A stretch of DNA of 64,000 nt from an uncultured bacterium (GCA_965112635.1 OZ218778.1:1248001-1312000); one strand, 5' to 3'. Shown: positions 10,682-47,208, numbered from the stretch's first letter. Notes: generated by a model from the letters alone, not told the origin. Made by a program: numbers and translations.

Positions 10682-10690
10682 TGATATAAT
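10682..10690 (+). promoter_or_regulatory. Extended -10 promoter element
   Basis: TGATATAAT 17 nt before ATG 10708. Confidence 0.5.
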
Positions 10691-10707
10691 TGCCGCAGGG
10701 AGCTCTT

Positions 10708-12849
10708 ATGATGTCCGTTATTAGAAAAGAAAATTTTCTATTCCGATTATCCTTTTTATTCCTCTTGCTTTTCGTCCCCTGCAGGGCTTCCCTGGCTGAT
10801 ATGTGGACGGATTTTCACGGCACCACCAGCAACAACGGCGTGACGGACAGCGGAACCCGCAACAATCCGGCCACAACCGGAGTTCCTCCTTTCAACTACA
10901 TCTGGAGCCACACCAACTGGGACGGGGTGACCACGAGTGCTATCCAAGAGAACAGCCCGATCATCGTTAACGGGGTGGCCTATTTAGCGTCCTTTGACGG
11001 CCAGATCTTTGCCTGGGACACTGCGACCGGCAACCCCGTGGCGCCCTTTCCCCTGAATACAGGGGATGCCATGGCCTCAGCCCCGGCTGTGGCCAACGGC
11101 ACTATTTATGTGGAATCTCTGGACGACGGGCTTTTTGCCTACAATATCGCCACGGGGGCTTTGGTTTTCAATGTTCCTACGGGCATACCCTGCATGAATG
11201 CAGGCTGGGTCCTCGGGTCTTCTCCTGTCGTGGACAACGGTAAAGTTTATGTGGGAAGCTGCGACGGTAAAGTTTACGGTTTCAATGCTCTGACCGGGGC
11301 TGGCATCCCCAATTTTCCTTTGGCTACGGGAGGGGCTGTCTGGTCCTCGCCAGCCGTGGACAACGGCGTCCTTTACGCGGGCTCCGAGGACGGCAAACTC
11401 TACGCGTGGGACGCCAATACCGGAGCTCTGAAATTTTCCAACCCCGTGACGGCCGGATTTGGCATCGCTTCCTCCCCGGTTGTCAGCGGCGGCATCGTAT
11501 TCATCGGCGCGGACGACGGCAAGCTCTATGCCTGGAACGCGGCAACCGGGGCCGCCATCGCCAATTTCCCGGTAAGCACCGGAGGCCGGCTCTGGTCCAC
11601 ACCGGCTGTGGCCTACGGCAATGTGTATGTAGGTTCACAGGACGGGAAACTGTACGGCTGGAACATCGCCACCGGGGCTTTGGTGCCGGGATTCCCGGTC
11701 ACGCTCAACGACTCTATTGAATGCTCTCCCTCCGTGGCCAACGGCGTGGTCTATATCGGGACCGGAGAATGCTGCAACGCTGTCGGCAACTCGGTCTACG
11801 GCATCAATGCCGCGAACGGTTCGGTTCTGTGGAGCTATAATTTGCCTTCCGACCCCGATTTTCCTGAAGGATTGGACGAAAGTTCCCCGACCGTGGCTGA
11901 TAACAAGCTCTTTGTCAGCTCGGACGAACTCAACGGCATTTATGTGTTCTCCCTTTCCACGCAAACCTATACTCCCACGGCCACAGGGACCTCGACCCAC
12001 ACGGGGACCCCTACCACGACCGGGACAGTCACCTTGACGGCCACCCAGACCCAGACCCCTTCGCAGACTTTGACCCCCTCCAAGACCTTGACTTCCAGCA
12101 ATACCGCCACCCCAACCCTTACCTTTACACAGACCGAAACCCCCACGCAGACCCTGACGCCCAGCAAGACCTTTACCCCGAGCAACACGGCGACCCAGAC
12201 CAGCACCATGACGCCGACCCCCAATATCCTTGTCATCCATAAGTCAGCCTCGCCCAGCCAGGGAGACAACAACGATCTCATTACCTATTCCCTGACCCTG
12301 CGGAACAACGGCTCGGATGCCACAGGGGTGACCCTGTGGGACAGCGTGAGTTCCAGGCTGGACCTGGTGAGTTATTCTTCGCCCGGAGTGTCCAGCCCGC
12401 CGTTGCTGAGCTGGTCTTTGGGGACCGTCACCGCAGGCCAGCGTGTCGTGGAGACTTTTTCGGCCAAAATCGACAACAACGACGCTCCGGGGTCCGAGAT
12501 CCCCAATAATTTTTACGCGAGATATTTTGATACCGCCACCCTGCAGACCGTCGCGGGCTTAAAGAGCAATACCGCCTGGGTGACGGTGGGCAAGGATGTC
12601 TTGGTCTATCCCAACCCCTTCAGCCTGAGCGGCTCCCTGGGCCGGGTCCTCAAATTCGTCAACGTGGAACCGGGCACGACCATCGAGATCCGCAGCCTTT
12701 CCGGAGAGATCGTGACGTCCATCCAGGCCGCGGATTATTACGCCACCTGGGACGGCCGCAACAACAGGGGGGAACTGGTGGCGCCGGGCATATTTTTTTA
12801 CATCATCGGTTATCCCAGCGTGAAAGGCAGGCTCATCGTCCACCCTTAA
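10708..12849 (+). CDS. Secreted PQQ-like (BamB-type) beta-propeller protein with Thr-rich linker, DUF11-like domain and FlgD-Ig/T9SS-like C-terminal domain
   Basis: Repeated SSPAV.NG.LY.GS.DGKLYAW blades, a TxT linker, and C-terminal VYPNPF...WDGRNNRGELVAPGIFFY. Confidence 0.8.
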   Translation: MMSVIRKENFLFRLSFLFLLLFVPCRASLADMWTDFHGTTSNNGVTDSGTRNNPATTGVPPFNYIWSHTNWDGVTTSAIQENSPIIVNGVAYLASFDGQIFAWDTATGNPVAPFPLNTGDAMASAPAVANGTIYVESLDDGLFAYNIATGALVFNVPTGIPCMNAGWVLGSSPVVDNGKVYVGSCDGKVYGFNALTGAGIPNFPLATGGAVWSSPAVDNGVLYAGSEDGKLYAWDANTGALKFSNPVTAGFGIASSPVVSGGIVFIGADDGKLYAWNAATGAAIANFPVSTGGRLWSTPAVAYGNVYVGSQDGKLYGWNIATGALVPGFPVTLNDSIECSPSVANGVVYIGTGECCNAVGNSVYGINAANGSVLWSYNLPSDPDFPEGLDESSPTVADNKLFVSSDELNGIYVFSLSTQTYTPTATGTSTHTGTPTTTGTVTLTATQTQTPSQTLTPSKTLTSSNTATPTLTFTQTETPTQTLTPSKTFTPSNTATQTSTMTPTPNILVIHKSASPSQGDNNDLITYSLTLRNNGSDATGVTLWDSVSSRLDLVSYSSPGVSSPPLLSWSLGTVTAGQRVVETFSAKIDNNDAPGSEIPNNFYARYFDTATLQTVAGLKSNTAWVTVGKDVLVYPNPFSLSGSLGRVLKFVNVEPGTTIEIRSLSGEIVTSIQAADYYATWDGRNNRGELVAPGIFFYIIGYPSVKGRLIVHP

Positions 12850-12885
12850 AGGGTTCCGATTTAACCTGAAAAAGTCGCTATTGGC

Positions 12886-12914
12886 TTGACAAGAGGGGTT
12901 TGAGGGGTTAGATT
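12886..12914 (+). promoter_or_regulatory. Sigma70-type promoter of the his/trp cluster
   Basis: TTGACA (12886-12891), a 17-bp spacer, then TAGATT (12909-12914). Confidence 0.75.
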
Positions 12915-12959
12915 ATTAACAATTCCGCACAAGGCGGGTCAAAAAAAGGAGAATTTTTC

Positions 12960-13031
12960 GTGGAAAACATCAAGTTAGCGGGCTGGCATTGGCATTCTGG
13001 TTCCACTAGGGGTGTGCCCGCTGCTTGGTAA
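12960..13031 (+). CDS. Leader peptide with Trp-His-Trp-His control codons (MENIKLAGWHWHSGSTRGVPAAW)
   Basis: SD AAGGAG, then GTG start at 12960, TGG CAT TGG CAT at 12984-12995 and TAA at 13029-13031. Lies between the promoter and a terminator upstream of hisD. Confidence 0.85.
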   Translation: MENIKLAGWHWHSGSTRGVPAAW

Positions 13032-13049
13032 TCAGGTGCAGTAAATTCC

Positions 13050-13082
13050 AAAGGCCGTGGGTCACCACCCACGGCCTTTTTT
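13050..13082 (+). terminator. Attenuator terminator (3:4 hairpin)
   Basis: AAAGGCCGTGGGT-cacc-ACCCACGGCCTTT with a T6 tract, ending about 43 nt before hisD. Confidence 0.9.
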
Positions 13083-13125
13083 GTTACTATATCCATCATC
13101 CATTTAGGCGAACAAGGGAGAACTA

Positions 13126-14493
13126 ATGAAAATATTCAAATGCGGCAACGAAAAACAAAAACAAAAAGTGTTCCAGTGGCTGGAGGCGATGAGCCAGAGC
13201 GACCCCAAGGTCGATGAGGTCGTCGCTAGCATCGGGGGGCTGGTCAAAAAGGACGGGGACCGCGCTTTATGCCAGCTGGCCATGCTTAGCCGGCCTGATG
13301 TTTCCAGGGCCGTGAGGCTGGGCGGCAGCAGGGCGTTGCTGCGGTATTACACCCGTCTCAAGATGCCCAGGTTCCCCCTCAAGGTCACGGACAAGGAAAT
13401 GAAGGGTTCCCTGGCCAAAGTTTCGCCTGGTGTTTTAAGGGCCGTGGTCCAGTCCCGGGACAATATCAGACGGTTCCATGAGCAGGCGGACAAAAGGACC
13501 TGGCTCAAGACCACGAACAAGCGGGGACAGCGGATCACTTTGGGCCAGATATACCGTCCTGTGGAATGCGCTGGGCTGTATGTGCCCGGAGGCACGGCTC
13601 CCCTGGTTTCTACTGTGCTGATGACCGCGGTCCCGGCCAGGGTTGCCGGGGTCAAGCGCTGTTATATTTGCACGCCGGCCTCTAGCCAGGGTGTGGTGCA
13701 TCCGATTATCCTGGCCGCAGCCAGGCTGTGCGGGGTTAACGAGGTTTACCGCACTGGCGGCAGCCAAGCTGTTTTTGCCATGGCCTACGGCACCCAGACC
13801 ATCCCGAGAGCGGACAAGATAGCCGGTCCGGGCAATGCCTATGTGGCGGCGGCCCTGAGGCAGGTGCAAGGATTCGCTGGAGTGGAGAGCATCCCGGGCC
13901 CCTCCGAAGTCATGATCGTGGCCGATGAGAGCGCCGACCCCATGGCCTTGGCCATGGACCTGTGCTCCCAGGCCGAACACGACGAGCGGGCTGTGGCCGT
14001 GCTCGTGGCGCTGTCGCCGCGCGTGACCCGGCAGGTCGAGGCGGCTTTGATAAAAGCCCTGCCTATGCTGGAGCGCCAGAGCGTCATCGAAAAGGTGCTG
14101 CAGAACAGGGCGGCCATTATTGAGGTCAAAAATAAAGCCATGGCTTTGGCCCTGGCCAACCGCATGGCTGCGGAGCATCTGGAGGTCAATTTAAAAGGCA
14201 ACGAGTCGGAAAAGTTCAGCCGGCAGGTCCAGAACGCCGGGGCAATTTTGGTGGGGCCGTTCACGCCGGCCGCGGTGAGCGATTATTTCGCCGGACCGAG
14301 CCACGTGCTGCCTACCGGCGGGACAGCCCGTTTTTCCTCAGGCGTTACCGTGGACACTTTTTTAAAGAAGACCAGCTGGGTTTCCTATAACGAAAAGGCC
14401 TTAAAAGAGGCCAGATTAGCGGTGCAGGCCCTGGCTTTGGTCGAAGGCTTGACGGCGCACAGCCAGAGCCTGGCCGTGCGCACAAAAAGATAG
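13126..14493 (+). CDS. hisD: Histidinol dehydrogenase
   Basis: GLYVPGG, GPGNAYV, GPSE, SQAEHD, AEHLE and DYFAGPSHVLPT motifs. Confidence 0.95.
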   Translation: MKIFKCGNEKQKQKVFQWLEAMSQSDPKVDEVVASIGGLVKKDGDRALCQLAMLSRPDVSRAVRLGGSRALLRYYTRLKMPRFPLKVTDKEMKGSLAKVSPGVLRAVVQSRDNIRRFHEQADKRTWLKTTNKRGQRITLGQIYRPVECAGLYVPGGTAPLVSTVLMTAVPARVAGVKRCYICTPASSQGVVHPIILAAARLCGVNEVYRTGGSQAVFAMAYGTQTIPRADKIAGPGNAYVAAALRQVQGFAGVESIPGPSEVMIVADESADPMALAMDLCSQAEHDERAVAVLVALSPRVTRQVEAALIKALPMLERQSVIEKVLQNRAAIIEVKNKAMALALANRMAAEHLEVNLKGNESEKFSRQVQNAGAILVGPFTPAAVSDYFAGPSHVLPTGGTARFSSGVTVDTFLKKTSWVSYNEKALKEARLAVQALALVEGLTAHSQSLAVRTKR

Positions 14494-14509
14494 GATGAGG
14501 AAGGTCATT

Positions 14510-15596
14510 ATGAACAGCGACAAGGGAAACGATTTATATCTGAGAGGGGAGATCAGGACGCTCAAGCCCTATAGCGTCGAGGAAGAATCTTTCCGGGTCA
14601 AATTGGACGCCAACGAGAACCCGTTCGACCTGCCCGCGGAGGTCAAGGAAGAAGTCCTCAGCGCGGCCCGGTCCAAGCCGTTCAACCGTTATCCGGACGC
14701 CAACGCGACCGTGCTGCGGGAAATGGTGGCCCAGGACCTGAACCTTAAAAAGGAGAATATCCTGTTCGGAAACGGGTCGGACGAGCTCATCCAGCTTATC
14801 CTGGCCACTTATGGGGCGCCGGGGCGGCGGGCGGTCTTTCCCGCTCCTACCTTTGAGATGTACAACGTCCTGACGCAGGTCAGCGGCATGGTGCCGGTGA
14901 GCGTAGCCCTGGACAAGAGGAATTTCGATTTGGACGAAAAGGAGTTCCTTAAAGAGCTGGCCAAGGAAAAGACCGAGCTGTGTTTTTTGGTCTATCCCAA
15001 CAGCCCGACCGGCAACTGCTTCAGCACAGCCAAGGTCGAGGAGGTCCTCAAAGCCAGCCGGGGTCTGGTGGTCATTGACGAGGCCTATTTTCAATTCTGC
15101 GGCAAGACCTTTGTGCCGAGGCTCAAGACCTATCCCAACCTCATTGTGCTGAGGACATTTTCCAAGGCGTTCGGCCTGGCGGGTTTGAGGGCGGGTTATT
15201 GTGTGGGGACGCCGGAAGTGCTGGCCAACCTATGGAAGGTCAAGCTGCCTTACAACCTCAACGCCCTGACCCAGCTGGCCGTGCAGGGGGCCATGCGTTA
15301 TAAGAAAAAAGTTCTGGAAAAAGTCGAGGAAATATTGCGGGAAAGGGATAAACTTGCGGACAGGCTGGCCCATGTCCCCGGGGTCAAACCATACCCGAGC
15401 GAGACCAATTTCATCTTTTTCGAGGTGGAAAAGGGCGCTTCCCGGGTCTTTGAACAGTTGAAAAAAGAAGGGATACTCATCCGGAGTTTCCAGGACCAGC
15501 CCGGGCTGGATGGTTTTATGAGGGTCACAGGTGGGGTCTAGCGAAGAGAACGAGGAGTTTTTGCAGATTCTAGAGAAGATAGTTAGAAATTTGTAG
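14510..15596 (+). CDS. hisC: Histidinol-phosphate aminotransferase (apparent one-base frameshift near 15530)
   Basis: KLDANENP, RYPD, GNGSDELI, DEAY and RTFSKAFGLAGLRAGY. The canonical C-terminus RVTVGSSEENEEFL continues in a shifted frame to TAG 15594-15596. Confidence 0.9.
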
Positions 15597-15638
15597 GAGC
15601 CGCTCCTGGCCAAGCCGGGAGGGGACGAGGAGGTTACG

Positions 15639-16238
15639 ATGAAAGCCAGGATCGCCAAGGTCGTGCGCAAGACCAAGGAGACCGACATCAAGGCAGTCCT
15701 AAACCTGGACGGCAAGGGTGAGATCACGGTCAGGACCGGGATCCCCTTTTTCGACCACATGCTTACCTCCCTGGCCAAACACGCTGGTTTTGACCTCCAA
15801 CTCTCGGCCAAAGGGGACACTCAGGTAGACGACCACCACACGGTCGAGGACGTGGGACTGGTCCTGGGGCAGGCTTTGGCCAAAGCCCTGGGGGATAAAA
15901 AGGGCATCCAGCGGTTCGGTTCGGCCATCGTGCCCATGGACGAGGCCAGGGCATACGCGGCCTTGGACATCAGCGGCCGTCCCTGCCTCAGTTACAGCAT
16001 AAGCATCGTCAAGGAGATCAAGGAGTTTGACCTGGAACTGCTGGAGGATTTTTTTGAGGCTTTTACCGTGGAAGGCCGGCTCACCCTGCACCTGTGGACC
16101 GACAGCCAGGCCGGGAAAAAGGTGAACAGCCACCACCAGGCCGAGGCCATGTTCAAGGCCAGCGCCTGCGCTCTCAGGCAGGCGGTCAGCCTCAACCCTC
16201 GGGTCAAGGGCGTGCCCTCGACAAAGGGAAAGCTATAA
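15639..16238 (+). CDS. hisB: Imidazoleglycerol-phosphate dehydratase (monofunctional)
   Basis: RKTKETDI, FFDHML, DDHHTVED, NSHHQAEAMFK and PSTKGKL. Confidence 0.97.
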   Translation: MKARIAKVVRKTKETDIKAVLNLDGKGEITVRTGIPFFDHMLTSLAKHAGFDLQLSAKGDTQVDDHHTVEDVGLVLGQALAKALGDKKGIQRFGSAIVPMDEARAYAALDISGRPCLSYSISIVKEIKEFDLELLEDFFEAFTVEGRLTLHLWTDSQAGKKVNSHHQAEAMFKASACALRQAVSLNPRVKGVPSTKGKL

Positions 16239-16269
16239 AAAACTAAGGAAAAGGTAAGGATATTTTAAG

Positions 16270-16938
16270 ATGATCGCGGTTGTGGATTACGGGATGGGCA
16301 ATTTGAGGAGCGTCCAAAAAGCCCTGGAGAGCGTGGGCGGGGAGGCTGTGGTCACGGACAAACCAGAGGTGATCACTGAGGCCAGGGCCATTGTTCTGCC
16401 CGGGGTAGGGGCTTTTGGCGCTGCCGTGGAAAAACTCCAGGCGCAGAACCTGATCGGATTGCTCAAAAGAGAGATCAGCAGCGGCAAACCCTTTTTGGGC
16501 ATTTGCCTGGGGCTCCAGCTGCTCTTCCAGGAGAGCGAGGAGTCGCCGGGCGTTGCCGGACTGGGGCTTTTGGAGGGCAAGGTCAAGGCCCTGAAGGTCA
16601 GCCTCAAGATCCCGCATATGGGCTGGAACCAGGTCCACCTCAACCCCAAGAACAAGAGCAGGCTGTTCCAGGGGATCCACGACAAGACTTTTTTTTATTT
16701 TGACCATACCTTCGCGGTTGTGCCCAAGGATCCGCGGGACATCGCCACCACGACCGATTATGAGGTCGATTTTGTGAGCGCGGTCAAAAGGGACAACATC
16801 TACGGGGTGCAGTTCCATCCTGAGAAAAGCCAGGCCGCGGGTCTGCGCCTGCTCAGGAATTTCGTCATGTTCAGCAAGGTGCCGTTGGGCGCTTTTAAAC
16901 TGATCAAAGAGATCACAAGAAGGACCAGGAAAAGATAG
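16270..16938 (+). CDS. hisH: Imidazole glycerol phosphate synthase, glutaminase subunit
   Basis: DYGMGNLRSV, PGVG, GICLGLQ, PHMGWN and QFHPEKS. Confidence 0.97.
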   Translation: MIAVVDYGMGNLRSVQKALESVGGEAVVTDKPEVITEARAIVLPGVGAFGAAVEKLQAQNLIGLLKREISSGKPFLGICLGLQLLFQESEESPGVAGLGLLEGKVKALKVSLKIPHMGWNQVHLNPKNKSRLFQGIHDKTFFYFDHTFAVVPKDPRDIATTTDYEVDFVSAVKRDNIYGVQFHPEKSQAAGLRLLRNFVMFSKVPLGAFKLIKEITRRTRKR

Positions 16939-16962
16939 CCTGGCCGGAGGAGGAGCAAAGCT

Positions 16963-17724
16963 GTGTTCGTTATTCCAGCGATAGACCTGAGGGACGGGTG
17001 CTGTGTCAGGCTGGTGCAGGGCGACCCGCACCGCCAGACCGTATATTCCAAGGAGCCGGTATCCATGGCCAAGCTATGGTACCTCAAGGGCGCCAAGTGG
17101 ATACACGTCGTGGACCTCAACGGCGCCCTGACCGGCAAGCCCATCCATATCGGCATCGTCAAACGCATCTGCCGGGAGGTCAAGGCCAAGGTCGAGTTCG
17201 GCGGCGGGGTGCGGAGCATGGACGTGATCGCGGAGCTCGTCGAGGCGGGAGTGCAGCGGGTCATCCTGGGCACTTCGGCCGTGGACCAGGCCAGCCTGGT
17301 GCAAAAGGCGGTGGCGCGGTTCGGCGGTAAGATCGCCGTGGCCCTGGACGTGAGAAGGGGCAAGCTGGCCACGCAGGGCTGGAAAACCATAGTGTCCCGG
17401 GAGCCTCTGGAGATGGCCCGGGAGATGCAAAAGCTGGGTGTGGGGACCTTTGTATTCACCGAGGTGAGCCGGGACGGCATGCTCAAAGGCCCTGCTTTTA
17501 AGGCCACTTCTGACTTTGTCCGGCAGGCCGGGGCCAAGGTCATCGCCTCGGGCGGCATCACCAAGCTGTCCAACCTGGTCAAGCTCAAAAAGCTGGAGCC
17601 CTTTGGGCTTATAGGCGCCATCGTGGGCAAGGCGCTTTATAGCGGGGACATGGACCTCAAGCAGGCCCTGGCCCTGGGCGAAGCCAAGGCCAGATCGAAG
17701 AAAAGACCGAAAAAAGGAGCGTAA
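16963..17724 (+). CDS. hisA: ProFAR isomerase
   Basis: IPAIDLRDGCCVRLVQG, HVVDLNGA, GGGVRS, RDGMLKG and ASGGI. Confidence 0.95.
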   Translation: MFVIPAIDLRDGCCVRLVQGDPHRQTVYSKEPVSMAKLWYLKGAKWIHVVDLNGALTGKPIHIGIVKRICREVKAKVEFGGGVRSMDVIAELVEAGVQRVILGTSAVDQASLVQKAVARFGGKIAVALDVRRGKLATQGWKTIVSREPLEMAREMQKLGVGTFVFTEVSRDGMLKGPAFKATSDFVRQAGAKVIASGGITKLSNLVKLKKLEPFGLIGAIVGKALYSGDMDLKQALALGEAKARSKKRPKKGA

Positions 17725-17730
17725 CCGAGC

Positions 17731-18504
17731 ATGTTAGCCAGGCGCATCATCCCTTGTCTGGATGTCACGGAAGGCAGGGTGGTCAAAGGGGTCAAGTTCG
17801 TGGACCTTAAAGATGCCGGAGACCCGGTGGAGATCGCGTCCTATTACGACAAGCAGGGCGCGGACGAGCTGGTGTTCCTGGACATCACGGCGTCGCACGA
17901 AAAGCGAAAGATCATCCTGACCCTGGTCAACAAAACCGCGGAGAGGGTCTTCATCCCCCTGACCGTGGGCGGGGGCATCAGCGAGATCGCGGACATCCGG
18001 GACCTATTGAACGCCGGGGCGGACAAGGTCTCGCTCAACACCGCGGCCGTGGAAAACCCCAAGCTTATCCGGAGCGCTTCGGACAAGTTCGGGGCGCAGT
18101 GCATCGTGACGGCCATCGACGCCATCCGCCGGCCTCCCAAAAAAAGGGGGGAGGTTTTTTGGGAGGTCTACACCCACGGAGGCAGGAAACCCACAGGCCT
18201 CAACGCCCTGGACTGGGCGCAAAAAGTGGTGGACCTGGGTTCGGGCGAACTTTTGGTGACCAGCATGGACCGGGACGGCACCCAGGTGGGCTATGACCTG
18301 GAACTTTTAAAAGCTATCTCCGAAAGGGTCCATGTGCCGGTCATCGCCTCGGGCGGGGCAGGGCATCTCAAACACCTTTACGAGGCCCTGGCCATCGGCA
18401 AAGCCGACGCGGTCCTGGCGGCATCCATATTCCATTTTGGGACCTATACCGTCAAACAGGTCAAGCGGTACTTGAAAGACCGGGACGTCCCGGTCAGATT
18501 TTGA
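17731..18504 (+). CDS. hisF: Imidazole glycerol phosphate synthase, cyclase subunit
   Basis: RIIPCLDV...[23 protein letters not shown] and AASIFH. Confidence 0.97.
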
Positions 18505-18522
18505 TCATAAGGAAGAAGAACG

Positions 18523-18933
18523 ATGAACCCACTCATTAAAGAAGTCAAATTCAATAAGGACGGGCTGGTGCCCGCCATCGTGCAGGACACGCGGGACAAA
18601 CAGGTCCTGATGTGCGCCTTCATGAACCAGAAGGCTTTGGCCCTTACCCTGAAGACCGGGCTCATGCACTACTACAGCCGTTCGAGGAACAAACTGTGGC
18701 TCAAAGGCGAGGAGTCCGGGCACGTGCAAAGGGTCAAAAAGATCTTTGTGGACTGCGACGCGGACTGTCTGCTTTTCTATGTCCAGCAGACCAAGGCCGC
18801 GTGCCATACCGGTTTTCGCACCTGTTTTTATAGGGTGGCCGAGGCCAGGAAGGGTAGGTGGAAAGTGATTGGAAAACCCTTATTCGACCCTAAAAAAGTG
18901 TATTCCATTCCTAAGGGAGGGCGCGCCCGATGA
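18523..18933 (+). CDS. hisI: Phosphoribosyl-AMP cyclohydrolase (no HisE domain)
   Basis: [20 protein letters not shown] and ACHTG..TCF. Confidence 0.95.
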
Positions 18934-20411
18934 TCAAGCCCGGGTGGCAGGAATTCCAGCAAAAGGCTAAAAAAGGCAACCTCATCCCGGTTTACCGGGA
19001 GATCCTGGCTGACCTGGAAACCCCTGTTTCCGCCTTTTTAAAGATAGAGGACGGCGAAAACTCCTTTTTACTGGAGAGCGTGGAGGGGTCCGAGCTCGTG
19101 GGCCGGTATTCCATTTTGGGGACCAACCCCTTGTTCGTGGTGTCCTGCAAGGACCAGAAAGTCACCTTCCAATACCACGGCAAGGTCCAGGAGGGCAGCG
19201 CGTCCACGGATCCCCTGGAACTGATCAAAAAGCTTTTGGCCGTTTACAAGCCGGTGCTGGACGAAGACCTGCCTCCTTTTATCGGCGGGGCCGTCGGGTA
19301 CCTGGCCTATGACGCGGTCCGCTATTTCGAGAAACTGCCCTATACCAAGGCCAAGGACGACCGGGAACTGCCGGACTGCCTCTTTATGGTCGCGGACACG
19401 GTGCTGATCTTCGACCACTTTAAGCACATGGTCCTGGCGGTCGCCAATGCCTACATCACGGACAAGGAAGGGCCCCGGGAAGCCTACGACAAGGCCTGCG
19501 AGAAGATAGACTTTCTGGTGGAGCAGCTCAAAAAACCCCTGAAGATCGCCAAGGCCAAGCCGGCCAAGTCCAAGGCCATCTCCTTGAGCCCGGATTTTGA
19601 GAAGCAAGGGTTCATCGAAGCCGTGGAAAAGATCAAAGAGCACATCCGGGCGGGCGACATCATCCAGGCCGTCCTGTCCCAGCGGCTCCAGGGCAAGATG
19701 ATGGTGGACCCTTTCACCGTGTACCGGGTCCTGAGGACCATCAACCCGTCCCCCTACATGTTCTACCTGCAGTTCGGGGACCTGCAGCTGGTGGGGTCCT
19801 CGCCGGAGATGCTGGTGAGGGTCAAGGGAACGCACGTGGAAACCCGGCCCATTGCCGGGACCCGGCCGCGCGGGAGGGACAGCGAAGAGGACGCCAACCT
19901 GATGAACGAACTCATCACGGATTCCAAGGAAAGGGCCGAGCACCTGATGCTGGTGGACCTGAGCCGCAACGACCTGGGACGGGTCTGCGACTACGGCACG
20001 GTGGAGGTCAGGGACCTCATGCGCGTGGAAAAGTTCTCCCATGTCATGCACCTGGTCACGGAAGTGCACGGGACTTTAAAGCAGGGGCACGACGTGTATG
20101 ACTGCCTGAGGTCCTGCTTCCCGGCCGGCACGGTCTCCGGGGCGCCCAAGATACGGGCCATGGAGATCATCGAAGAGCTGGAACCTTTTTATCGCGGGCC
20201 TTACGCGGGGGCCGTGGGTTATTTCGGGTTCCAGGGCAACATGGACACCTGCATCGCCCTGAGGACCCTGGTCATCCACAAGGAAGTGGCTTATGTCCAG
20301 GCCGGGGCGGGCATTGTCGCGGATTCCCATCCTGAACTGGAATACGAAGAAAGCATGAATAAATCCAAAGCCCTGGTCAAAGCCATTTCCCTGGCTTCCG
20401 AGGGACTATAG
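18930..20411 (+). CDS. trpE: Anthranilate synthase component I
   Basis: LLESVEG (Trp feedback site), [28 protein letters not shown] and [10 protein letters not shown]. Overlaps the hisI stop (ATGA). Confidence 0.95.
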
Positions 20412-20423
20412 GTAAGAGGAGGG

Positions 20424-23360
20424 TTGATGATGAACAGAAAGGCCGTTATTATAACGCTTTTACTGCTGGCAACCGGGGCTGTCCTGGCGCCCCGCTGGCT
20501 GGCAGCGGAAGATCTGAAGATCGCCATTACGAAGGATAATTCCATTTGCATGGATTCCGGCGAACGGAAATTGAATATGGGAGGTTCTTCCCGTATCAAA
20601 TTAAAAGCGGATGAGAACGCCATCCTGCTGGCCGTGGATACCGCAGCCATGCAGAACAAGCTTTTGACCAAGGCCGTGCTGCATATCCGGGGCACGGACA
20701 CCAATATGATGGTACGCAAAGTGGACTTTTCCACTCTGGCCTGCTCTCCCTGGAGCGAGGGGGTAGGCAACGGAGAGGCGGCCAACCAGGGGGATTCCAC
20801 TTTTTTTACGCCGGAGTTCGGCAGCGACCGTTTATGGGGCGGGCCGGATTCTGATTTTTACGACGTCATCGGCGGCCGCTGCGGGACCATCTGGATGCAG
20901 GCCTATGTCAAGCCCGGGCCGGACATGTGGTACGAGATGGAGATCGACCCGCGCCTTTTGGAAGCCTGCGCGGCCGGATTATCCGGCGGCATCCTGATGC
21001 ATGACGGCAACGGACAGGTCAAAGAAATGAATGGGGCGGTAATGCCCGGCAGCAATTACGGTAATAATTTATTTTATTCCAAAGAGCAGGCCGGCTCAGA
21101 GCCTTATTTTACGGCCGTAGCCCAGCCCGCGGCCAAGGCGGCTGGTGACACGCTGGCCGTGGAGGTCAAACCCTGGCAGGCCGGGGCTGATTTTGAAAAG
21201 GGCGGTGTGGAGATCAGCTGGCCAGGTCCCTTAAGCGACAAAGAGTACAGGTCTATGCTGGGAGCCCGCGTCTATCTCACAAGCGGGAGCAATCCCGAGG
21301 TCCCGGCGCCGCTGTGGACCATGCCGCCTTTGCCCAAGCCGGGCGAGACGGCCCGGTTGCTTTTGTCCGGCCAGGAACCGGGCGCTTCCCTGACGGCGCG
21401 GGTGGAAGTCGTGACCCGGGGCGGCCAGGTGCTGCACCAAGGCAGCGCTTCAGGACAGGTCTCGGACAAGTTCCCTGAGCCGCAGGCCTTGAGCCTGCAG
21501 GCCGTGGCCGGGAAAGCCGGCGACCCGCCGTCCAACTCCAAGGCCAAAGTCTGGGTGGTGCCGGACGGGGTCAAGGTCAATCCTCTGACCGGCAATGTCC
21601 AGGAGGAGGACGGGGTGACTTACGAAGGCGACCCGGCGGGCACTTACCGCCAGGCCAATGCCGTGTGGAGCGGGGGAGGCGCCACCATAAACCTGGCCGG
21701 GCTCAAAGGCGAGTGGGTCGGGTTCCAGATCGTGTGCGAGAACGCGGGTACCGACCCGGTGTCTTACCATATTAAACCGGGCAGCCTGAGCGGGGCCAGC
21801 GGCGTCCTGATCCAGGATGCCAATGTGGGGTTGTCCAGGATGTGGTATATCAAGAACGGGGACAAGGACCAGAGCTGGTACGAGGACCCCATGGTCCCCC
21901 TAAAAAATGACGAGGCTTTTGGCGTTCCCTGGGATAAGAACGCGGTGCCTGGCCAGAAAAACCAGGCTATTTATACGGAATTCTTCATTCCCAAGAGCGC
22001 GGCGCCAGGGGCGTATACCGGCGTCATTCAGGTATTTGCCGGGGACGAAAGCCCGGTGGCTTTGAATGTAAACCTGACGGTGGGTAACGGGGCCATTCCG
22101 GATGAGGCGCATCTGATCCTGTCCATGAACAATTACCAATCTCCGGGGGGAAATTTCGAGGAAAAGGATTTTCTCCAGGGCGAGAGGGCTTTTTACCGCA
22201 TGGCCCACGACCATCGTACGGATATATGCATCGTGCCTTACAGCCACATTGGCAATATCCAGAGGGATTATCAGCTCCCCTTGGCCGGCACGGGCAGTTC
22301 CATGCGTGTCGCTGACTGGTCAGCCTGGGACAAGCGTTTTGGGCCCCTGTTCGACGGGACCGTTTTCAAGGGGTCGCCCCGGGAAAACGCACCCTTGAGC
22401 CATTTTAACCTGATGTTTTCCGAGAACTATCCCACGACCATGGCGCAGGGTTATAAATACAACAACCTGAGCTGGGAAAACTGCTGGAAAGAGAACAATA
22501 CTCCCTGGGAAGATTTCAGCGACACCTTTAAAGCCCAGTGGGTGGCCGTGGCCAAGGACTTTATCAAGCATGTGAAGGAAAAAGGATGGCAGACCTCTTT
22601 TCAGGTATTGCTGAACGACAAGAGCAACTATAAGGCCGCGGACCCTACGACCAAACAGCCGGGAAAAGGCGTGAGTTTTTGGAGGCTGGACGAGCCGGCT
22701 TATACCGATGACTTTCTGACTGTTCAGCTCATCGGCAGACTGTTGAAACAGGCCCAGGAGGGCGACCGCAACCATGTCCTATTCCGCTGCGATGTTTCCT
22801 ATCCGGAACGGGCGTGGACCATGCTGAGCCGGGTTTTGGACCTGGACGTGTGCAGCAACCTCAGCTATCTCCGTTTCCTGCAGGACGACCGCGAGCGTTA
22901 CGGCGTCGGGATCTGGAATTACAGCGGGGCGCCGTCCTGCCAGGAAAGCAACCTGGGCATCAGCGCCATGGCCATGGACCTTTTTGGCCGGAGCGTGGAC
23001 GGGTATGTGCCCTGGAAGGCCATTGGGTCGGATTTCAACTGGAACAAGTTCGACGACTTTACCAGCGTCATTTATACCGGAGGGCGCTGGGGCATCATTG
23101 GGCCCTGCGCTTCCCTGCGGCTTAAGGCTTACCGCCGCGCGGAGCAGGACGTGGAGTACCTGTGGCTTCTGGCCAACAAGAGGGGGCTCCTGAACAACGA
23201 CCCGAACCACAAACAGGTGGCCAGGCTTTTGACCAGTTCCCTGAACCTGCAAAAGACCACGAGCGCCCTGGACAACAACGGGGGCGTGGTCGAGTCGTTT
23301 AAAAGCATAAAGCCCGACCAGCTGGAGAGCCTCAGGCGGGCCATAGCAGGGGCATTGTGA
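20424..23360 (+). CDS. Large secreted protein with putative glycoside hydrolase-like (DUF4091/GH123-like) C-terminus
   Basis: Signal peptide, LDEP motif and C-terminal SLRLKAYRRAEQDVEYL. The family assignment is from recalled motif similarity only. Confidence 0.55.
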   Translation: MMMNRKAVIITLLLLATGAVLAPRWLAAEDLKIAITKDNSICMDSGERKLNMGGSSRIKLKADENAILLAVDTAAMQNKLLTKAVLHIRGTDTNMMVRKVDFSTLACSPWSEGVGNGEAANQGDSTFFTPEFGSDRLWGGPDSDFYDVIGGRCGTIWMQAYVKPGPDMWYEMEIDPRLLEACAAGLSGGILMHDGNGQVKEMNGAVMPGSNYGNNLFYSKEQAGSEPYFTAVAQPAAKAAGDTLAVEVKPWQAGADFEKGGVEISWPGPLSDKEYRSMLGARVYLTSGSNPEVPAPLWTMPPLPKPGETARLLLSGQEPGASLTARVEVVTRGGQVLHQGSASGQVSDKFPEPQALSLQAVAGKAGDPPSNSKAKVWVVPDGVKVNPLTGNVQEEDGVTYEGDPAGTYRQANAVWSGGGATINLAGLKGEWVGFQIVCENAGTDPVSYHIKPGSLSGASGVLIQDANVGLSRMWYIKNGDKDQSWYEDPMVPLKNDEAFGVPWDKNAVPGQKNQAIYTEFFIPKSAAPGAYTGVIQVFAGDESPVALNVNLTVGNGAIPDEAHLILSMNNYQSPGGNFEEKDFLQGERAFYRMAHDHRTDICIVPYSHIGNIQRDYQLPLAGTGSSMRVADWSAWDKRFGPLFDGTVFKGSPRENAPLSHFNLMFSENYPTTMAQGYKYNNLSWENCWKENNTPWEDFSDTFKAQWVAVAKDFIKHVKEKGWQTSFQVLLNDKSNYKAADPTTKQPGKGVSFWRLDEPAYTDDFLTVQLIGRLLKQAQEGDRNHVLFRCDVSYPERAWTMLSRVLDLDVCSNLSYLRFLQDDRERYGVGIWNYSGAPSCQESNLGISAMAMDLFGRSVDGYVPWKAIGSDFNWNKFDDFTSVIYTGGRWGIIGPCASLRLKAYRRAEQDVEYLWLLANKRGLLNNDPNHKQVARLLTSSLNLQKTTSALDNNGGVVESFKSIKPDQLESLRRAIAGAL

Positions 23361-23399
23361 GGATTTGACCGTCAAACTGGAGAGGAGTTCAGCGTCGCT

Positions 23400-24751
23400 T
23401 TGAAGGCCAGGTGTTTCCTAAGCTTGTTTTTGCTTGTTGTTACAGCGCTTTTGTGGCTGCAGGGATGTTCAACCCTTTCCGACCGGGTGTCCTCAGATGA
23501 CGAGTACACCCGATTGCCGGCCCAGAGGGAGTTGCGCGACCTCAAACCCGACCAGGCCAACCAGGTCGTGGAGGGGCTCGTCGCGAGGATGGACCAAAAA
23601 TCAGACCCCCTCAGCCGGGAATGGGCGGCCCAGTCCCTGGGGCTGGTGGGGCCGCAGGCCAAGGCCGCTGTGCCTAGCCTGATCCGGGCCCTGCAGGACG
23701 AGTACTACTATGTCCGGGAAAAGGCCGCGGAGGCTTTGGGCAAGATCAGGAGCGACCAAAAGGCCGTGCCGGCCCTCATCGCCGTTTTGCACGACGAGAA
23801 CGGTATTGTCCGGGACAAGGCCGAGGGTGCCCTGAACATGATCGGACCGCCGGACAAGGGGTCCATCGAGGACCTGGTCAAGCTGCTGACTGACCAGCCG
23901 GACCCCTTTATTCGGGCCAAGGCGGCCGAGTCGCTGGGGAGCATGGGGGAGGACGGACAGCCGGCCACCAAGACCCTGGCCGCGGCCCTGGGGGATAAAG
24001 ACCCCGGCGTGCGGGCCTACAGCGCGGAGGCTCTGGGCAGGATCGGCGAAGGCGCCGAAGAGGCCCTGCCCCAGGTGGTGCAGGCCCTCAAGGACGCCGA
24101 CGACCAGACCAGGAAGAACGCCAGGCTGGCCCTGTCCAGGGTGGTGCTCCGCTGCAACCTGATCCCCGGCATGGTCCCGCCGGAGCTGAGGCTGATGGAA
24201 AAGCGGCTCCAAGACATTTTCAACCGGCAGGTGGGATGGGCCAGCACCAACAAGCAGGTCAAGATCATCGCGGTCATGTGGAAGGGCATGGAGCCCGAAA
24301 TGGCCCAGAGAAAAGTTCCGAAGGTGATGATGGACAAGCTCGACACGGCCCTGCAGGACCTGGGGCAAAAGGCAGGGGCCAAGGACGACGACGGGATGGT
24401 GGGAGCCTTGCAAAGCTCCTGCGAGGCCCTGCTGGACCTGTATGAGCTGTACCAGCCCAGGATGCCCTGCGACTTTAACCGCCTGCTGGTGTACCAGGAG
24501 ATGATCACCCTGGCCCGCTGGGACAGGATCGGGCCCCTGCTGATGCAGGACCGGTGGACCTGGAACAGGGCCAAGCCGTGGCTCATCCAGTGGGGGGAGA
24601 GGGTGAGGCCGGGGAATACGAGAAGTGCCTCAACCGGCAGGAACGGGCCGCAGCGGACAAGGATATCGTCCTTTTGAACAAGGAGTCCCAGAACGGCTGG
24701 GGCCTGGCCAACAAGGTCTATAAATTTATCGCGGAGAGGAAGAAGTCATGA
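23400..24751 (+). CDS. HEAT/PBS-lyase repeat lipoprotein (apparent frameshift in G6 tract at 24592-24597)
   Basis: Lipobox LQGC and repeats of VR.KAAEALG.I...AVPALI..L.D. Adding one G extends the ORF to TGA 24751, which overlaps the trpG ATG. Confidence 0.75.
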
Positions 24752-25317
24752 TCCTGATGATCGACAATTACGATTCATTCACCTACAACCTGGTGCAATA
24801 CCTGGGCGAGCTCAAAGAGGACCTCATCGTCCGGCGTAATGACAAGATAGAGCTGCAGGAGATAGAGAACATCAGGCCGGACCGCATCGTCATCTCGCCG
24901 GGGCCGGGAACCCCCAGCCAGGCAGGCATTTCCTGCGATGTCATAAGGCGTTTCGGGCCGGAGATACCCATTTTGGGGGTCTGCCTGGGACACCAGGCTA
25001 TCGGGCAGGTCTTCGGCGGAGAGGTGGTCAGGGCCGAGCGGCTGATGCACGGCAAGACCTCGCTGGTGCACCACGACGGCAAGAACCTGTTCCGCTACAT
25101 CCGCAACCCGTTCGAGGCCATGCGTTACCACTCCCTGATCGTGAAAAAAGATACCCTGCCCTCGTTCCTGGAGGTCACCGCGTGGACCGACCAGGGTGAG
25201 ATCATGGGTCTCAGGCACAAAACCTTTCCGGTCGAGGGGGTGCAGTTCCATCCGGAATCCATCATGACCAAAGTGGGCAAGGATATCCTGAAAAATTTTC
25301 TGATGCTGGAGCGTTGA
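24748..25317 (+). CDS. trpG: Anthranilate synthase component II (glutamine amidotransferase)
   Basis: IDNYDSFTYNL, SPGPG, GVCLGHQ, RYHSL and QFHPES; lies within the trp cluster. Confidence 0.93.
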   Translation: MILMIDNYDSFTYNLVQYLGELKEDLIVRRNDKIELQEIENIRPDRIVISPGPGTPSQAGISCDVIRRFGPEIPILGVCLGHQAIGQVFGGEVVRAERLMHGKTSLVHHDGKNLFRYIRNPFEAMRYHSLIVKKDTLPSFLEVTAWTDQGEIMGLRHKTFPVEGVQFHPESIMTKVGKDILKNFLMLER

Positions 25318-25345
25318 ACCAGCCGAGCAAGATGAAGGAGGGATC

Positions 25346-26350
25346 GTGATCAAGGAAGCCATCCAAAAATTGATCGAGAAAAAGGACCTGACCGAGGCCG
25401 AGGCCTTGGCCGCCCTGGGCGAGATCATGGACGGCCAGGCGACGCCGGCGCAGATCGGGAGTTTCATCACGGCCCTCAGGATGAAAGGCGAGACCATTCC
25501 CGAGATCATCGGGTGCGTCAAGGCCATGCGGGCCAAGGCCACCCATATCCAGAGCGACGGCGCGGTCCTGGACACCTGCGGGACCGGCGGGGACCGGAAA
25601 GGGACCTTTAACATCTCCACGGCGGCGGCCTTTGTGGCGGCCGGGGCGGGCATCCGCGTGGCCAAGCACGGCAACCGGGCCGTATCCAGCGGATGCGGCA
25701 GCGCGGATGTGCTGGCGGCCCTGGGGGTCAACCTCGAGATGCCCCCGGACAAGGTGGAGCAGGCCCTGAGGGAGATCGGGATCGCTTTTTTGTTCGCGCC
25801 CATGCTGCACTCGGCCATGAAACACGCCATCGGTCCGCGCCGGGAGATCGGCATCCGGACGGTCTTTAACGTCCTGGGGCCCATGACCAACCCGGCCGAG
25901 GCCAGGTACCAGCTCATCGGGGTTTACGACCCCTCCCTGACCGAGGTCATTGCCAGCGTGCTGGGAGAACTGGGGAGCGAACGGGCCTGGGTGGTGCACG
26001 GCGAGGAACTTTTGGACGAGATCTCCATCTCCGGCCGGACCAGGGTCAGTGAGCTCAGGGACGGCAAGGTCAAGACCTTTACCATTGAGCCCAAGGACGC
26101 GGGATTGAAACCGGTACCTTTATCCCTGCTCCTGGGCGGGGACGCGACCCGCAACGCCCAGATTCTGGAGATGGTTTTAAGGGGTGAAAAAGGCCCTCAC
26201 CGCCAGGCGGTCCTCATTAATGCCGGAGCGGCCATTTATGTGACCCTGCCGGGAACCTTTCAGGATGGGGTGGAAATGGCCAGAAAATCCATTGATTCCG
26301 GGGCGGCTATGGCCAAGCTGGAAGCCCTGCGAAAATTTGCCAAGAAATGA
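25346..26350 (+). CDS. trpD: Anthranilate phosphoribosyltransferase
   Basis: DTCGTGGD, FNISTA, KHGNR and RTVFNVLGP. Confidence 0.96.
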   Translation: MIKEAIQKLIEKKDLTEAEALAALGEIMDGQATPAQIGSFITALRMKGETIPEIIGCVKAMRAKATHIQSDGAVLDTCGTGGDRKGTFNISTAAAFVAAGAGIRVAKHGNRAVSSGCGSADVLAALGVNLEMPPDKVEQALREIGIAFLFAPMLHSAMKHAIGPRREIGIRTVFNVLGPMTNPAEARYQLIGVYDPSLTEVIASVLGELGSERAWVVHGEELLDEISISGRTRVSELRDGKVKTFTIEPKDAGLKPVPLSLLLGGDATRNAQILEMVLRGEKGPHRQAVLINAGAAIYVTLPGTFQDGVEMARKSIDSGAAMAKLEALRKFAKK

Positions 26351-26356
26351 CGAGCC

Positions 26357-27766
26357 ATGTTCCTGGAAAAGATAGCCAAACAAAAGAAAAAAGAGGTCAG
26401 GGCCGCTAAAAAACAAAAGCCCCTGGCCCAGCTCCAGGAGGAGGTGCGGCAGGCTCCTCCGGTGCGGCCCTTTTTGGCCGGCCTCAAGAACAGCCCCTAT
26501 TTCCCCCTTATCGCCGAGATAAAAAAAGCTTCGCCTTCCAAAGGCCCCTTAAACCCCAATCTGGACGTCGTCAACCTGGCTAAAACCTACGAGCAGGGAG
26601 GGGCTGCGGCCCTTTCCGTCCTGACCGAGGAGAAATTCTTCGGGGGCAGCCTGGCTGACCTGGCCAACTGCCGGCAGGCGGTCAGCCTGCCTGTCCTGCG
26701 CAAGGACTTTATGGTCGACGCCTACCAGATCTGGGAGTCCCGGGCCGGCGGAGCCGACGCGGTCCTGCTCATCGCCGACCTTTTGGCCCAGGAAGAGCTG
26801 GAGAAGTTCTACAGCCTCAGCCATGAGTTGGGCATGGAGGCTCTGGTGGAGGTCCATGGCAAACTGGACCTCAAAAAGGCCCTGGCCCTCAACCCCGGCC
26901 TGCTGGGCATCAACAACCGCGACCTGAAAACTTTCAAGACCAAGCTAAAAAATTCTTTTCAGCTCATCCCCGAGATCCCGGGGGAGATCTTCACCATCAG
27001 CGAGAGCGGTATCTTTACCTACGACGACCTGATGGCCTTGAAGTCCCGCGGCCTGAAGGGAGCGCTCGTCGGCGAAAGTCTGGTGACCAGCCCTGACCCG
27101 GCCCTAAAACTGGACCAGCTGCTGGGCAAGAGGCCGTCGCCGCTGGCCGACACTTTCCTCATCAAGATCTGCGGCATCACCAGCCTCAAGGACGCCCGAT
27201 TGGCGGTGGAGGCCGGAGCCAACGCCCTGGGGTTCAATTTTTACCCCAGGAGCCCGCGCTACATCACGCCGGAGGCGGCCAGCTCCATCGTCAAGGGCCT
27301 GCCGGGGCACGTGCGCAAAGTCGGGGTGTTCGTGGACGCGCCCGCGCCCGAGGTGCGCTATATCGCCGGCCTTTGCCAGCTGGACACCCTGCAGTTCCAC
27401 GGGCAGGAGAGCGAGACCTATTGCGGGAGCTTTGAGCAGGAAGTCATCAAGGCGTTCAGGGTGAGGGGAGAGAAAGACATCAAGCAGGCTTATACCTATA
27501 CCGCGGACGCGTTCCTGCTGGATAACTTCAGCGAGGAGCTGCCCGGCGGGACGGGCAGGGTCTTTAATTGGACCCTGCTCAAGCAGGCCAGGCGGCCTTT
27601 TATCCTGGCCGGAGGGCTGAACCCGGAGAACATCCGGGAGGCCATCCAGACCTGCCGTCCCAACGGCGTGGACGCGTGCAGCGGGGTCGAGGAAGCACCA
27701 GGCAGGAAAAGCCCAAAAAAATTAGTAAAATTCGTGCAACAGGCCAGGAAAGCACTGAATCATTAA
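26357..27766 (+). CDS. trpCF: Fused indole-3-glycerol-phosphate synthase / phosphoribosylanthranilate isomerase
   Basis: IAEIKKASPSKG, LRKDF, GINNRDL and SESGI, followed in frame by KICGIT, QFHGQE, GGTG and LAGGL. Confidence 0.93.
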   Translation: MFLEKIAKQKKKEVRAAKKQKPLAQLQEEVRQAPPVRPFLAGLKNSPYFPLIAEIKKASPSKGPLNPNLDVVNLAKTYEQGGAAALSVLTEEKFFGGSLADLANCRQAVSLPVLRKDFMVDAYQIWESRAGGADAVLLIADLLAQEELEKFYSLSHELGMEALVEVHGKLDLKKALALNPGLLGINNRDLKTFKTKLKNSFQLIPEIPGEIFTISESGIFTYDDLMALKSRGLKGALVGESLVTSPDPALKLDQLLGKRPSPLADTFLIKICGITSLKDARLAVEAGANALGFNFYPRSPRYITPEAASSIVKGLPGHVRKVGVFVDAPAPEVRYIAGLCQLDTLQFHGQESETYCGSFEQEVIKAFRVRGEKDIKQAYTYTADAFLLDNFSEELPGGTGRVFNWTLLKQARRPFILAGGLNPENIREAIQTCRPNGVDACSGVEEAPGRKSPKKLVKFVQQARKALNH

Positions 27767-27816
27767 AAAAGTTGTCGTTCATGCAATAATTAAACTTAAC
27801 AGGGAGGGTAACAGTC

Positions 27817-28035
27817 ATGGCTGATTTGAAACGGTTCCGGGTGGGGATCGAATGGAAGATGTACGGGTATTGTTACTCGGAGGCCAAGGACGAGAAGGAG
27901 GCGCTTTTGCTGGTGCAGGGTATGCTCAAAGACCCTAAAACCAAGTATCCAGATAATGCTAAATTTGTACCGAACAGCGCCATCATAGACCATCTTTCCA
28001 TCAAGGAAGTCAACAAGGGTGAAGCAAGCCGTTGA
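27817..28035 (+). CDS. Small hypothetical protein (72 aa)
   Basis: SD gggagg and ATG; fills the trpF-trpB gap. Confidence 0.65.
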
Positions 28036-28051
28036 GGATGAAAGAGGAAGA

Positions 28052-29263: not shown

Positions 29264-29265
29264 CC

Positions 29266-30093: not shown

Positions 30094-30111
30094 GAGAATA
30101 GGAAAACCTTT

Positions 30112-46472: not shown

Positions 46473-46493
46473 TTTTGTTTTGAAGGAATGAGG

Positions 46494-46534
46494 AAGAGCA
46501 CAAGCGGGTTAAAACCTGCTTGTGCTCTTTTTTT
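46494..46534 (+). terminator. Intrinsic terminator after pilin 1
   Basis: AAGAGCACAAGCGGG-ttaaaa-CCTGCTTGTGCTCTT followed by a T tract. Confidence 0.9.
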
Positions 46535-47146: not shown

Positions 47147-47167
47147 TTTTGTTTTGAAGGAATGAGG

Positions 47168-47208
47168 AAGAGCACAAGCGGGTTAAAACCTGCTTGTGCT
47201 CTTTTTTT
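47168..47208 (+). terminator. Intrinsic terminator after pilin 2
   Basis: Identical hairpin to 46494-46534. Confidence 0.9.

Follow-up and report, generated by a model that had tools for sequence, protein, structure and literature searches.

A candidate leader-peptide attenuator with tryptophan and histidine control codons in front of a hybrid his-trp operon of an uncultured bacterium

Results

Elements of the leader in front of hisD

The DNA analysed here, called the window throughout, is a stretch of 64,000 nucleotides (nt) from an uncultured bacterium (GCA_965112635.1 OZ218778.1:1248001-1312000), whose genome is available as one contig of 2.88 Mb that is 96.9% complete. Our subject is the short region between a beta-propeller gene and hisD, the first gene of a cluster for histidine and tryptophan biosynthesis. 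An earlier note on this DNA had proposed that the region encodes a transcription attenuator with a leader peptide responsive to both amino acids, and the results below support that proposal in part. The region 12700-13300 was read directly and its elements were re-indexed; coordinates refer to the whole window unless genome coordinates are stated. All elements lie on the plus strand.

12886-12914, plus strand: promoter-like site, TTGACA (12886-12891), 17-nt spacer, TAGATT (12909-12914); 10 of 12 consensus positions
12946-12951, plus strand: Shine-Dalgarno site AAGGAG; the start codon follows 8 nt further on
12960-13031, plus strand: leader open reading frame (ORF) of 23 codons, with GTG start at 12960-12962 and TAA stop at 13029-13031
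12969-12983, plus strand: segment 1, 5' arm of the 1:2 anti-antiterminator hairpin (folding)
12984-12995, plus strand: control codons TGG-CAT-TGG-CAT (W9 H10 W11 H12), leader codons 9-12
13011-13029, plus strand: segment 2, alternative partner of segment 1 or segment 3 (folding)
13048-13066, plus strand: segment 3, terminator 5' arm plus loop, and 3' side of the 2:3 antiterminator (folding)
13050-13082, plus strand: intrinsic terminator (3:4) with a 13-bp stem, a 4-nt loop and T6 (folding and hairpin scan)

The promoter, the Shine-Dalgarno site, the 23-codon ORF and the TGG-CAT-TGG-CAT block of the earlier note were all located in the sequence, and its three pairings, including the U6 terminator, were reproduced by folding. 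The leader ORF begins with GTG at 12960, not with ATG. This GTG is the first start codon past an in-frame stop, and the ORF is the sole short one preceded by a Shine-Dalgarno site from the promoter-like site to the terminator. A third Trp codon (TGG, 13026-13028) is its final sense codon, and the first base of its stop codon (13029) is the final base of segment 2. In the terminator 13050-13062 pairs with 13067-13079, with eight G-C pairs, around a loop at 13063-13066, and the T6 tract occupies 13077-13082. The distance from the end of that tract to the hisD start codon at 13126 is 47 nt.

When the stretch 12500-32400 was scanned for terminators, 44 terminator-like sites were found against 26.6 +/- 5.6 in shuffled sequences, and the one at 13050 has the most pairs. 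Among the promoter-like sites of the same stretch the one at 12886 scores best, and a consensus scan gave no promoter-like site between terminator and hisD (13083-13125). A transcript entering hisD must therefore cross the terminator, so that conditional read-through is required whichever sensor acts.

Alternative folds and the effect of a stalled ribosome

The minimum-energy fold of the whole leader (12921-13090) consists of the 1:2 hairpin and the terminator, at -61.3 kcal/mol (z = -3.45), a value that 0 of 200 shuffled sequences equalled. The terminator by itself reaches -24 kcal/mol (z = -6.4; 0/200 shuffles equal), and stem 1:2, which pairs 12969-12983 with 13016-13029 and has an inner extension, reaches -27.1 kcal/mol (z = -2.45; 3/200 equal). 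The alternative stem 2:3 pairs 13011-13028 with 13048-13066 through 16 bp at -19.3 kcal/mol. This antiterminator is notable for the bases it uses, not for its energy. It is the minimum-energy fold of a transcript that ends at 13066, and also of transcripts ending at 13062-13070 when a ribosome mask is laid over the W/H codons.

In a stall map, a modelled ribosome with an assumed footprint from -15 to +11 relative to the A-site was placed on each codon in turn and the nascent transcript was folded. With RNA made up to 13066, 10 of the 13 bases of the terminator 5' arm were sequestered by stalls at codons 2-13, six by a stall at codon 19, and none or one when the stall was at codons 14-18 or 20-23 or at the stop codon. 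With RNA made up to 13072, where the 3' arm starts to compete, the antiterminator persisted solely for codons 6 and 8-13; W9-H10-W11-H12 are four of the six adjacent positions 8-13. A modelled ribosome at the stop codon covers segment 2 and the terminator thus forms. These nascent-transcript folds agree with the earlier proposal that a stall at the control codons would mask segment 1 and free segment 2. The same proposal had described the leader as an OR gate, opened by shortage of either amino acid, and this fits the nascent-transcript folds, in which all four W/H stall positions share one predicted result, the antiterminator; the fold of the full-length leader gives the terminator.

Rarity of the elements

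We asked how often such elements occur elsewhere in the genome. Among 5,751,990 six-frame windows of four residues, 69 consist of His and Trp only and seven of two Trp and two His; of these seven, only the control-codon block of the leader is not within a long ORF. The sequence TGGCAYTGGCAY is found once in the 2.88-Mb genome, and the leader sequence as a whole is single-copy with no repeat. For the hairpins, 559 terminator-like structures collected genome-wide served as the comparison set, in which the terminator at 13050 ranks 23rd by energy. A three-way design, defined by a segment 2 that pairs with the terminator 5' arm in a cut transcript and with an upstream segment in a full fold that forms the terminator, is present at six of the 559, among which the leader site ranks first by antiterminator energy. 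Ten of the 559 are equal or better in both the number of 5'-arm bases sequestered by upstream sequence and the energy. The tests were picked after the feature was known, so that a joint probability is not to be taken literally; still, an accidental combination of the leader elements is very unlikely.

The downstream his-trp operon

The genes behind the leader were assigned with Pfam.

13126-18933, plus strand: hisD, hisC, hisB, hisH, hisA, hisF and hisI (PRA-CH only)
13126-14493, plus strand: hisD
18523-18933, plus strand: hisI, PRA-CH only
18930-20411, plus strand: trpE, with a 4-nt overlap (ATGA) between its start and the hisI stop
20424-24677, plus strand: two unrelated genes, for a 978-aa weakly GH123_N-like protein and a 425-aa HEAT-repeat protein
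24748-30093, plus strand: trpG, trpD, fused trpC-trpF, a 72-aa ORF, trpB and trpA

The cluster order is thus hisDCBHAFI-trpE-(two genes)-trpGD-trpCF-(72-aa ORF)-trpBA, on one strand and with short gaps. The hybrid his-trp operon that had been postulated is real as a gene arrangement because hisI and trpE overlap by ATGA, and the order of his genes followed by trpE is common across the phylum. The gene assignments also agree with the observation that the control amino acids of the leader are those of the two pathways encoded downstream.

The long-form hisG stands alone, outside the window and about 22 kb upstream of hisD (genome C1:1239101-1240012), and no leader was found before it. A PRA-PH (hisE) domain had no match anywhere in the genome and hisI is cyclohydrolase-only, so that no gene was identified for the pyrophosphohydrolase step.

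Several further features of the cluster were recorded. A G+C-rich hairpin of 7 bp with a short T-run (18478-18495) lies at the end of hisF, just 5' of hisI-trpE, and might act as a weak terminator inside the cluster, separating its his part from its trp part. The 72-aa ORF (27817-28035) has a good Shine-Dalgarno site and lies in a 252-nt gap between trpC-trpF and trpB; its match to DUF1801 (E 0.03) is not significant, and an extended -10 promoter-like site precedes it at 27763-27790. For the 978-aa protein encoded between trpE and trpG, look-alike protein clusters are commonest in Planctomycetota.

The operon among relatives

Of the 99 genomes of the phylum that were compared, no other belongs to the family of the source genome. 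In 61 genomes searched, hisD identity was about 50% at most, and all of these relatives belong to the same phylum and to other families. Scans of public contigs gave a best hisD identity of 47% (53 loci from genome contigs; 80 of 105 loci kept from metagenome contigs). A hisD match was found in 58 relatives, and in 40 of them it is followed after 3-9 kb by trpE, on the same strand of the same contig.

For closer comparison 40 loci (L165-L204) were used, comprising 37 of the 40 linked relatives and three picked by their trpE match. The order hisD-(hisC)-hisB-hisH-hisA-hisF-(insert)-hisI-trpE was seen in 38 of them; L203 is cut by a contig end and L202 contains hisI-trpE only. trpE directly follows hisI in 40/40. 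Judged by this gene order, his-trp linkage is a phylum-wide trait, and no description of a phylum-wide his-trp super-operon was found in the papers searched. In other phyla five genomes were tried; four of them (Planctomycetales, Opitutales, Chloroflexota and Latescibacterota records) had trpE matches, whose positions showed no sign of his-trp linkage.

In many of the 40 loci murA ends just before hisD, and one relative family has a conserved TGCTATAGT-type promoter 40-90 nt before hisD, without a leader. Short ORFs with H/W codons before hisD were considered in L167, L177 and others, and were rejected because they coincide in part with promoters or with repeated promoter-like boxes and differ between sister genomes. 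In two relatives (L185 and L197) trpG directly follows trpE. The hisF-hisI insert measures 1-2.9 kb in many relatives, and in L190, L193, L196 and L199 it opens with a conserved small ORF sharing a G-H-P-Y-H motif.

The leader scan had a positive control: classical leaders were detected in 39 of 163 other loci, all of them His-only with runs of 4-5 His. Their records carry the labels Bacteroidales, Pasteurellaceae and others, with many gut contigs that are almost the same among them. Among the 164 loci scanned, the leader of the window alone mixes W and H. DNA nearly identical to that of the source genome is present in four peat or sediment DNA runs, one of which covers the leader and is identical there; a look through the sequencing runs turned up no RNA run with this DNA.

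Other regulators and candidate leaders in the genome

Known types of regulator for these pathways were searched for. No T-box was found genome-wide at an expectation value (E) up to 0.001 (47 candidates scored), nor in 12000-14000 at E up to 10, and no TrpR/HisR family protein, TRAP or Spo0A was found in the genome. All 4227 Rfam models run over 12000-14000 at E up to 10 gave four chance-level matches to unrelated families (E 2.6-9.4), and the entire window gave no match at gathering score. The Rfam families for the trp and his operon leaders are Trp_leader and His_leader, and both are absent from the permissive matches in 12000-14000. The leader consequently falls outside the proteobacterial leader families of Rfam.

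Other amino-acid leaders were sought genome-wide. A few short ORFs rich in F, I or L were seen and rejected, none standing before a recognisable biosynthetic gene or a proper terminator.

Three other hairpin arrangements were met with in the genome. Two identical terminator hairpins with 17-bp stems lie 674 nt apart in the window at about 46493-46530 and 47167-47204 (genome 1294493 and 1295167), with the same 16-codon ORF before each and a different gene after each; the pair looks like a duplicated control or terminator module. A dispersed repeat, about 35 nt long and containing a hairpin and a weak T-tract, occurs in front of genes (genome C1: 138040, 704667, 1241122 and 1370709; minus strand, 603771 and 1618422), and some copies begin short ORFs sharing their first seven residues. 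Outside the window, on the minus strand at genome C1:272982-273053, there is a Lys/Cys-rich ORF of 23 codons that has a strong Shine-Dalgarno site; behind it comes a terminator hairpin of 14-17 bp that ends 11-14 nt before a 209-aa ORF.

Discussion

Proposed mechanism

The anatomy of a trpL/hisL-type attenuator is present in front of hisD: the analysis shows its elements and how they are spaced, the alternative pairings and a rare codon block. We consider it probable, at roughly 70%, that the leader works as a transcription attenuator of the ribosome-mediated (leader-peptide) type and lets transcription through when either Trp or His becomes scarce. This interpretation is plausible and internally consistent, and it is based on a single sequence; from that sequence we infer that the ORF is translated, that ribosomes stall on it and that read-through responds to Trp and His.

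Transcription would start at about 12921 and yield a leader RNA of about 160 nt, on which a ribosome would load at AAGGAG/GTG and translate the 23-codon ORF. With ample charged tRNA-Trp and tRNA-His, the ribosome would reach the stop codon at 13029 and cover segment 2, the 3:4 hairpin with its U6 tract would form, and transcription would end at about 13082. With Trp or His scarce, the ribosome would stall at codons 9-12 and cover segment 1, leaving segment 2 free to pair with segment 3 before segment 4 exists, and the polymerase would continue into hisDCBHAFI-trpE...trpBA. With no translation at all, 1:2 and 3:4 would form and termination would follow.

Both control amino acids have low-frequency codons in this genome (TGG 1.43%, CAT plus CAC 1.89%), and low codon frequency is tied to sensitive attenuation in the part of the work of Elf and Ehrenberg consulted here (PMC1183508). 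Judged from the same part of that source, two codons per amino acid should make the response to a single amino acid shallow and trp-type, not steep and his-type (PMC1183508). Joint expression of the two pathways could be corrected by enzyme feedback on long-form HisG, whose gene lies outside the operon, and on anthranilate synthase.

Points that weigh against the attenuator

A number of observations count against a two-input attenuator. The number of promoter-like sites in 12500-32400 does not exceed that in shuffles (7 against 6.8 +/- 3.0). The energy of stem 2:3 is ordinary (z = -0.42), 65 of 200 shuffles doing as well. At equilibrium the full-length leader always gives the terminator, with or without a ribosome mask, and the switch therefore depends on assumed kinetics and an assumed footprint. 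The earlier note had expected the antiterminator to dominate when 12965-13005 is kept unpaired; folding the full leader in this way resulted in the terminator, an outcome that is expected of a kinetic switch. There are just two control codons per amino acid, and the response to a single one may be weak, as far as the consulted part of PMC1183508 goes. A crude genome scan yielded no other convincing amino-acid leader.

The leader also lacks comparative support, the closest hisD being only about 50% identical within the phylum and 47% in the public scans. A short H/W ORF with a terminator was found in 0 of the 40 his-trp loci, either before hisD or in internal gaps, and a search with nhmmer using the leader sequence gave no match in 202 loci (1.27 Mb). 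The earlier note had put forward a check on whether relatives keep the W/H codons; none of the 40 loci showed this, and all of them come from other families with hisD identity of about 50% or less, a distance at which the conservation test is weak either way. On the loci compared, the leader is specific to the source lineage, which neither proves nor disproves function. Attenuator leaders turn over between families, and for this reason lineage specificity does not decide the matter.

Distant relatives share the operon without the leader, which would accordingly have arisen de novo in the source lineage. We regard it as evenly balanced whether the whole of this wider picture is correct, namely a two-input OR gate that arose de novo in the lineage on a phylum-ancestral his-trp super-operon, and whose terminated RNA of about 160 nt might act in trans.

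Alternative explanations

Ribosome stalling might sense only Trp or only His, the other codon pair being incidental, for instance through duplication of TGGCAT. The control-codon block is indeed a perfect tandem repeat of this one 6-mer, which a single slippage event can produce; two codons per amino acid are at the low end for sensitivity, judging by the part of PMC1183508 consulted; and the other 39 leaders of the 164-locus control scan are all His-only with 4-5 His. Against this, the four stall positions share one predicted outcome, the genes downstream make both amino acids, and a block of two Trp and two His is ten times rarer than any H/W four-residue window (7 vs 69 of 5.75 million). 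We judge a single-input attenuator unlikely.

Similarly improbable is a leaky or constitutive terminator that senses nothing, possibly belonging to the upstream beta-propeller gene (10690-12849), with the ORF and the pairings there by chance. The terminator lies 200 nt past the stop of that gene, a distance equalled or exceeded by 57 of 126 intergenic terminators; it was taken to the nearest co-directional ORF in a crude gene list and is not informative. The shuffle-level energy of 2:3, the promoter-like matches that are not enriched in the region and the absence of the leader from the relatives all fit such a terminator. However, the region's best promoter-like site comes after the upstream gene and ahead of the terminator, with no such site beyond it, the codon motif is unique in non-ORF DNA and fits the operon content, the three-way design is rare (6/559 terminators), and the control codons fall exactly within the predicted stall window.

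A trans-acting factor (an RNA-binding protein, an uncharged tRNA or a small ligand) could instead overcome the terminator with no stalled ribosome, which would make the ORF irrelevant. T-box, TRAP-type and riboswitch systems share a terminator/antiterminator shape of this kind, and the phylum relatives evidently control the same operon without a leader ORF. Yet the Rfam searches described above gave chance-level matches only around the leader and none in the window at gathering score, the genome searches gave no T-box, TRAP or TrpR/HisR, and the Shine-Dalgarno site and the ORF fill the roughly 90 nt ahead of segment 2, leaving no space for a sensor of Stem-I size. Such a factor seems highly improbable here.

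Hardly credible, too, is an independent small RNA or 23-residue peptide gene at 12921-13082 with a function of its own and hisD as a chance neighbour: promoter and terminator do bound a unit of about 160 nt, and terminated attenuator RNAs can act in trans, as the consulted part of PMC6614838 describes for rnTrpL of Sinorhizobium, but hisD would be left without a further promoter-like site, no relative of the peptide was detectable among the examined loci, and a trans function would supplement attenuation, not replace it.

Comparison with known systems

A leader that answers to both Trp and His, if it acts as proposed, would mean that the codon content of a leader simply tracks whichever genes enter the operon. 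It would also extend leader-peptide attenuation to an uncultured lineage in which T-box, TrpR/HisR and TRAP were not found. Its two interleaved inputs, with two codons each, make the leader a small natural system on which quantitative models of attenuation can be tested, and, with relatives that have the same operon and no leader, a test case for the origin of such switches.

The earlier note knew of no described His+Trp leader, and our search of the full-text literature, reaching few subscription journals, likewise found no description of a His+Trp leader or of a 'his-trp operon'. In the part consulted, a review of his operon evolution mentions tryptophan in passing only (PMC10138114).

A close likeness is to trpL of E. 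coli and Salmonella, which also has a short ORF with adjacent Trp codons, a sensor of two Trp codons, segments pairing as 1:2, 2:3 and 3:4, and a terminator before the first structural gene. Unlike in trpL, the Trp codons here alternate with His codons, the operon contains genes for histidine biosynthesis as well, the host belongs to a different and poorly known phylum, and similarity in sequence or to a covariance model is absent. A comparative study of attenuators is said to have been made by Vitreschak and colleagues in 2004.

hisL of Salmonella and E. coli resembles our leader in having a peptide with His codons, followed by a terminator/antiterminator, before his genes. However, the first gene is here hisD, not hisG. 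Leaders with His codons only have been predicted in the Bacillus cereus group, Peptostreptococcaceae and Erysipelotrichales, according to the part of PMC9413887 consulted. hisL and these predicted His leaders have 3-7 consecutive His codons and no Trp, whereas the leader described here has two His codons alternating with Trp.

With regard to gene content, a similar case is the supraoperon of Bacillus subtilis, likewise a single unit, with trp genes and one his-pathway gene, under terminator/antiterminator control. The B. subtilis aro-trp-his supraoperon is controlled by TRAP and senses Trp only; in contrast, no TRAP was found here, and gene content and order differ.

Several amino acids within one leader are familiar from the multivalent leaders of Enterobacteria, thrL (Thr, Ile) and ilvL and ivbL (Leu, Val, Ile), in which starvation for any one of them relieves termination. 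To our knowledge, described leaders sense either one amino acid or several from one branched pathway. The codons of thrL, ilvL and ivbL belong to one branched pathway, whereas the syntheses of His and Trp have only the substrate phosphoribosyl pyrophosphate in common; the two inputs would be joined here because both gene sets are fused into one operon. Compared with these systems, the leader in front of hisD most likely represents a textbook mechanism with a hitherto undescribed pair of inputs.

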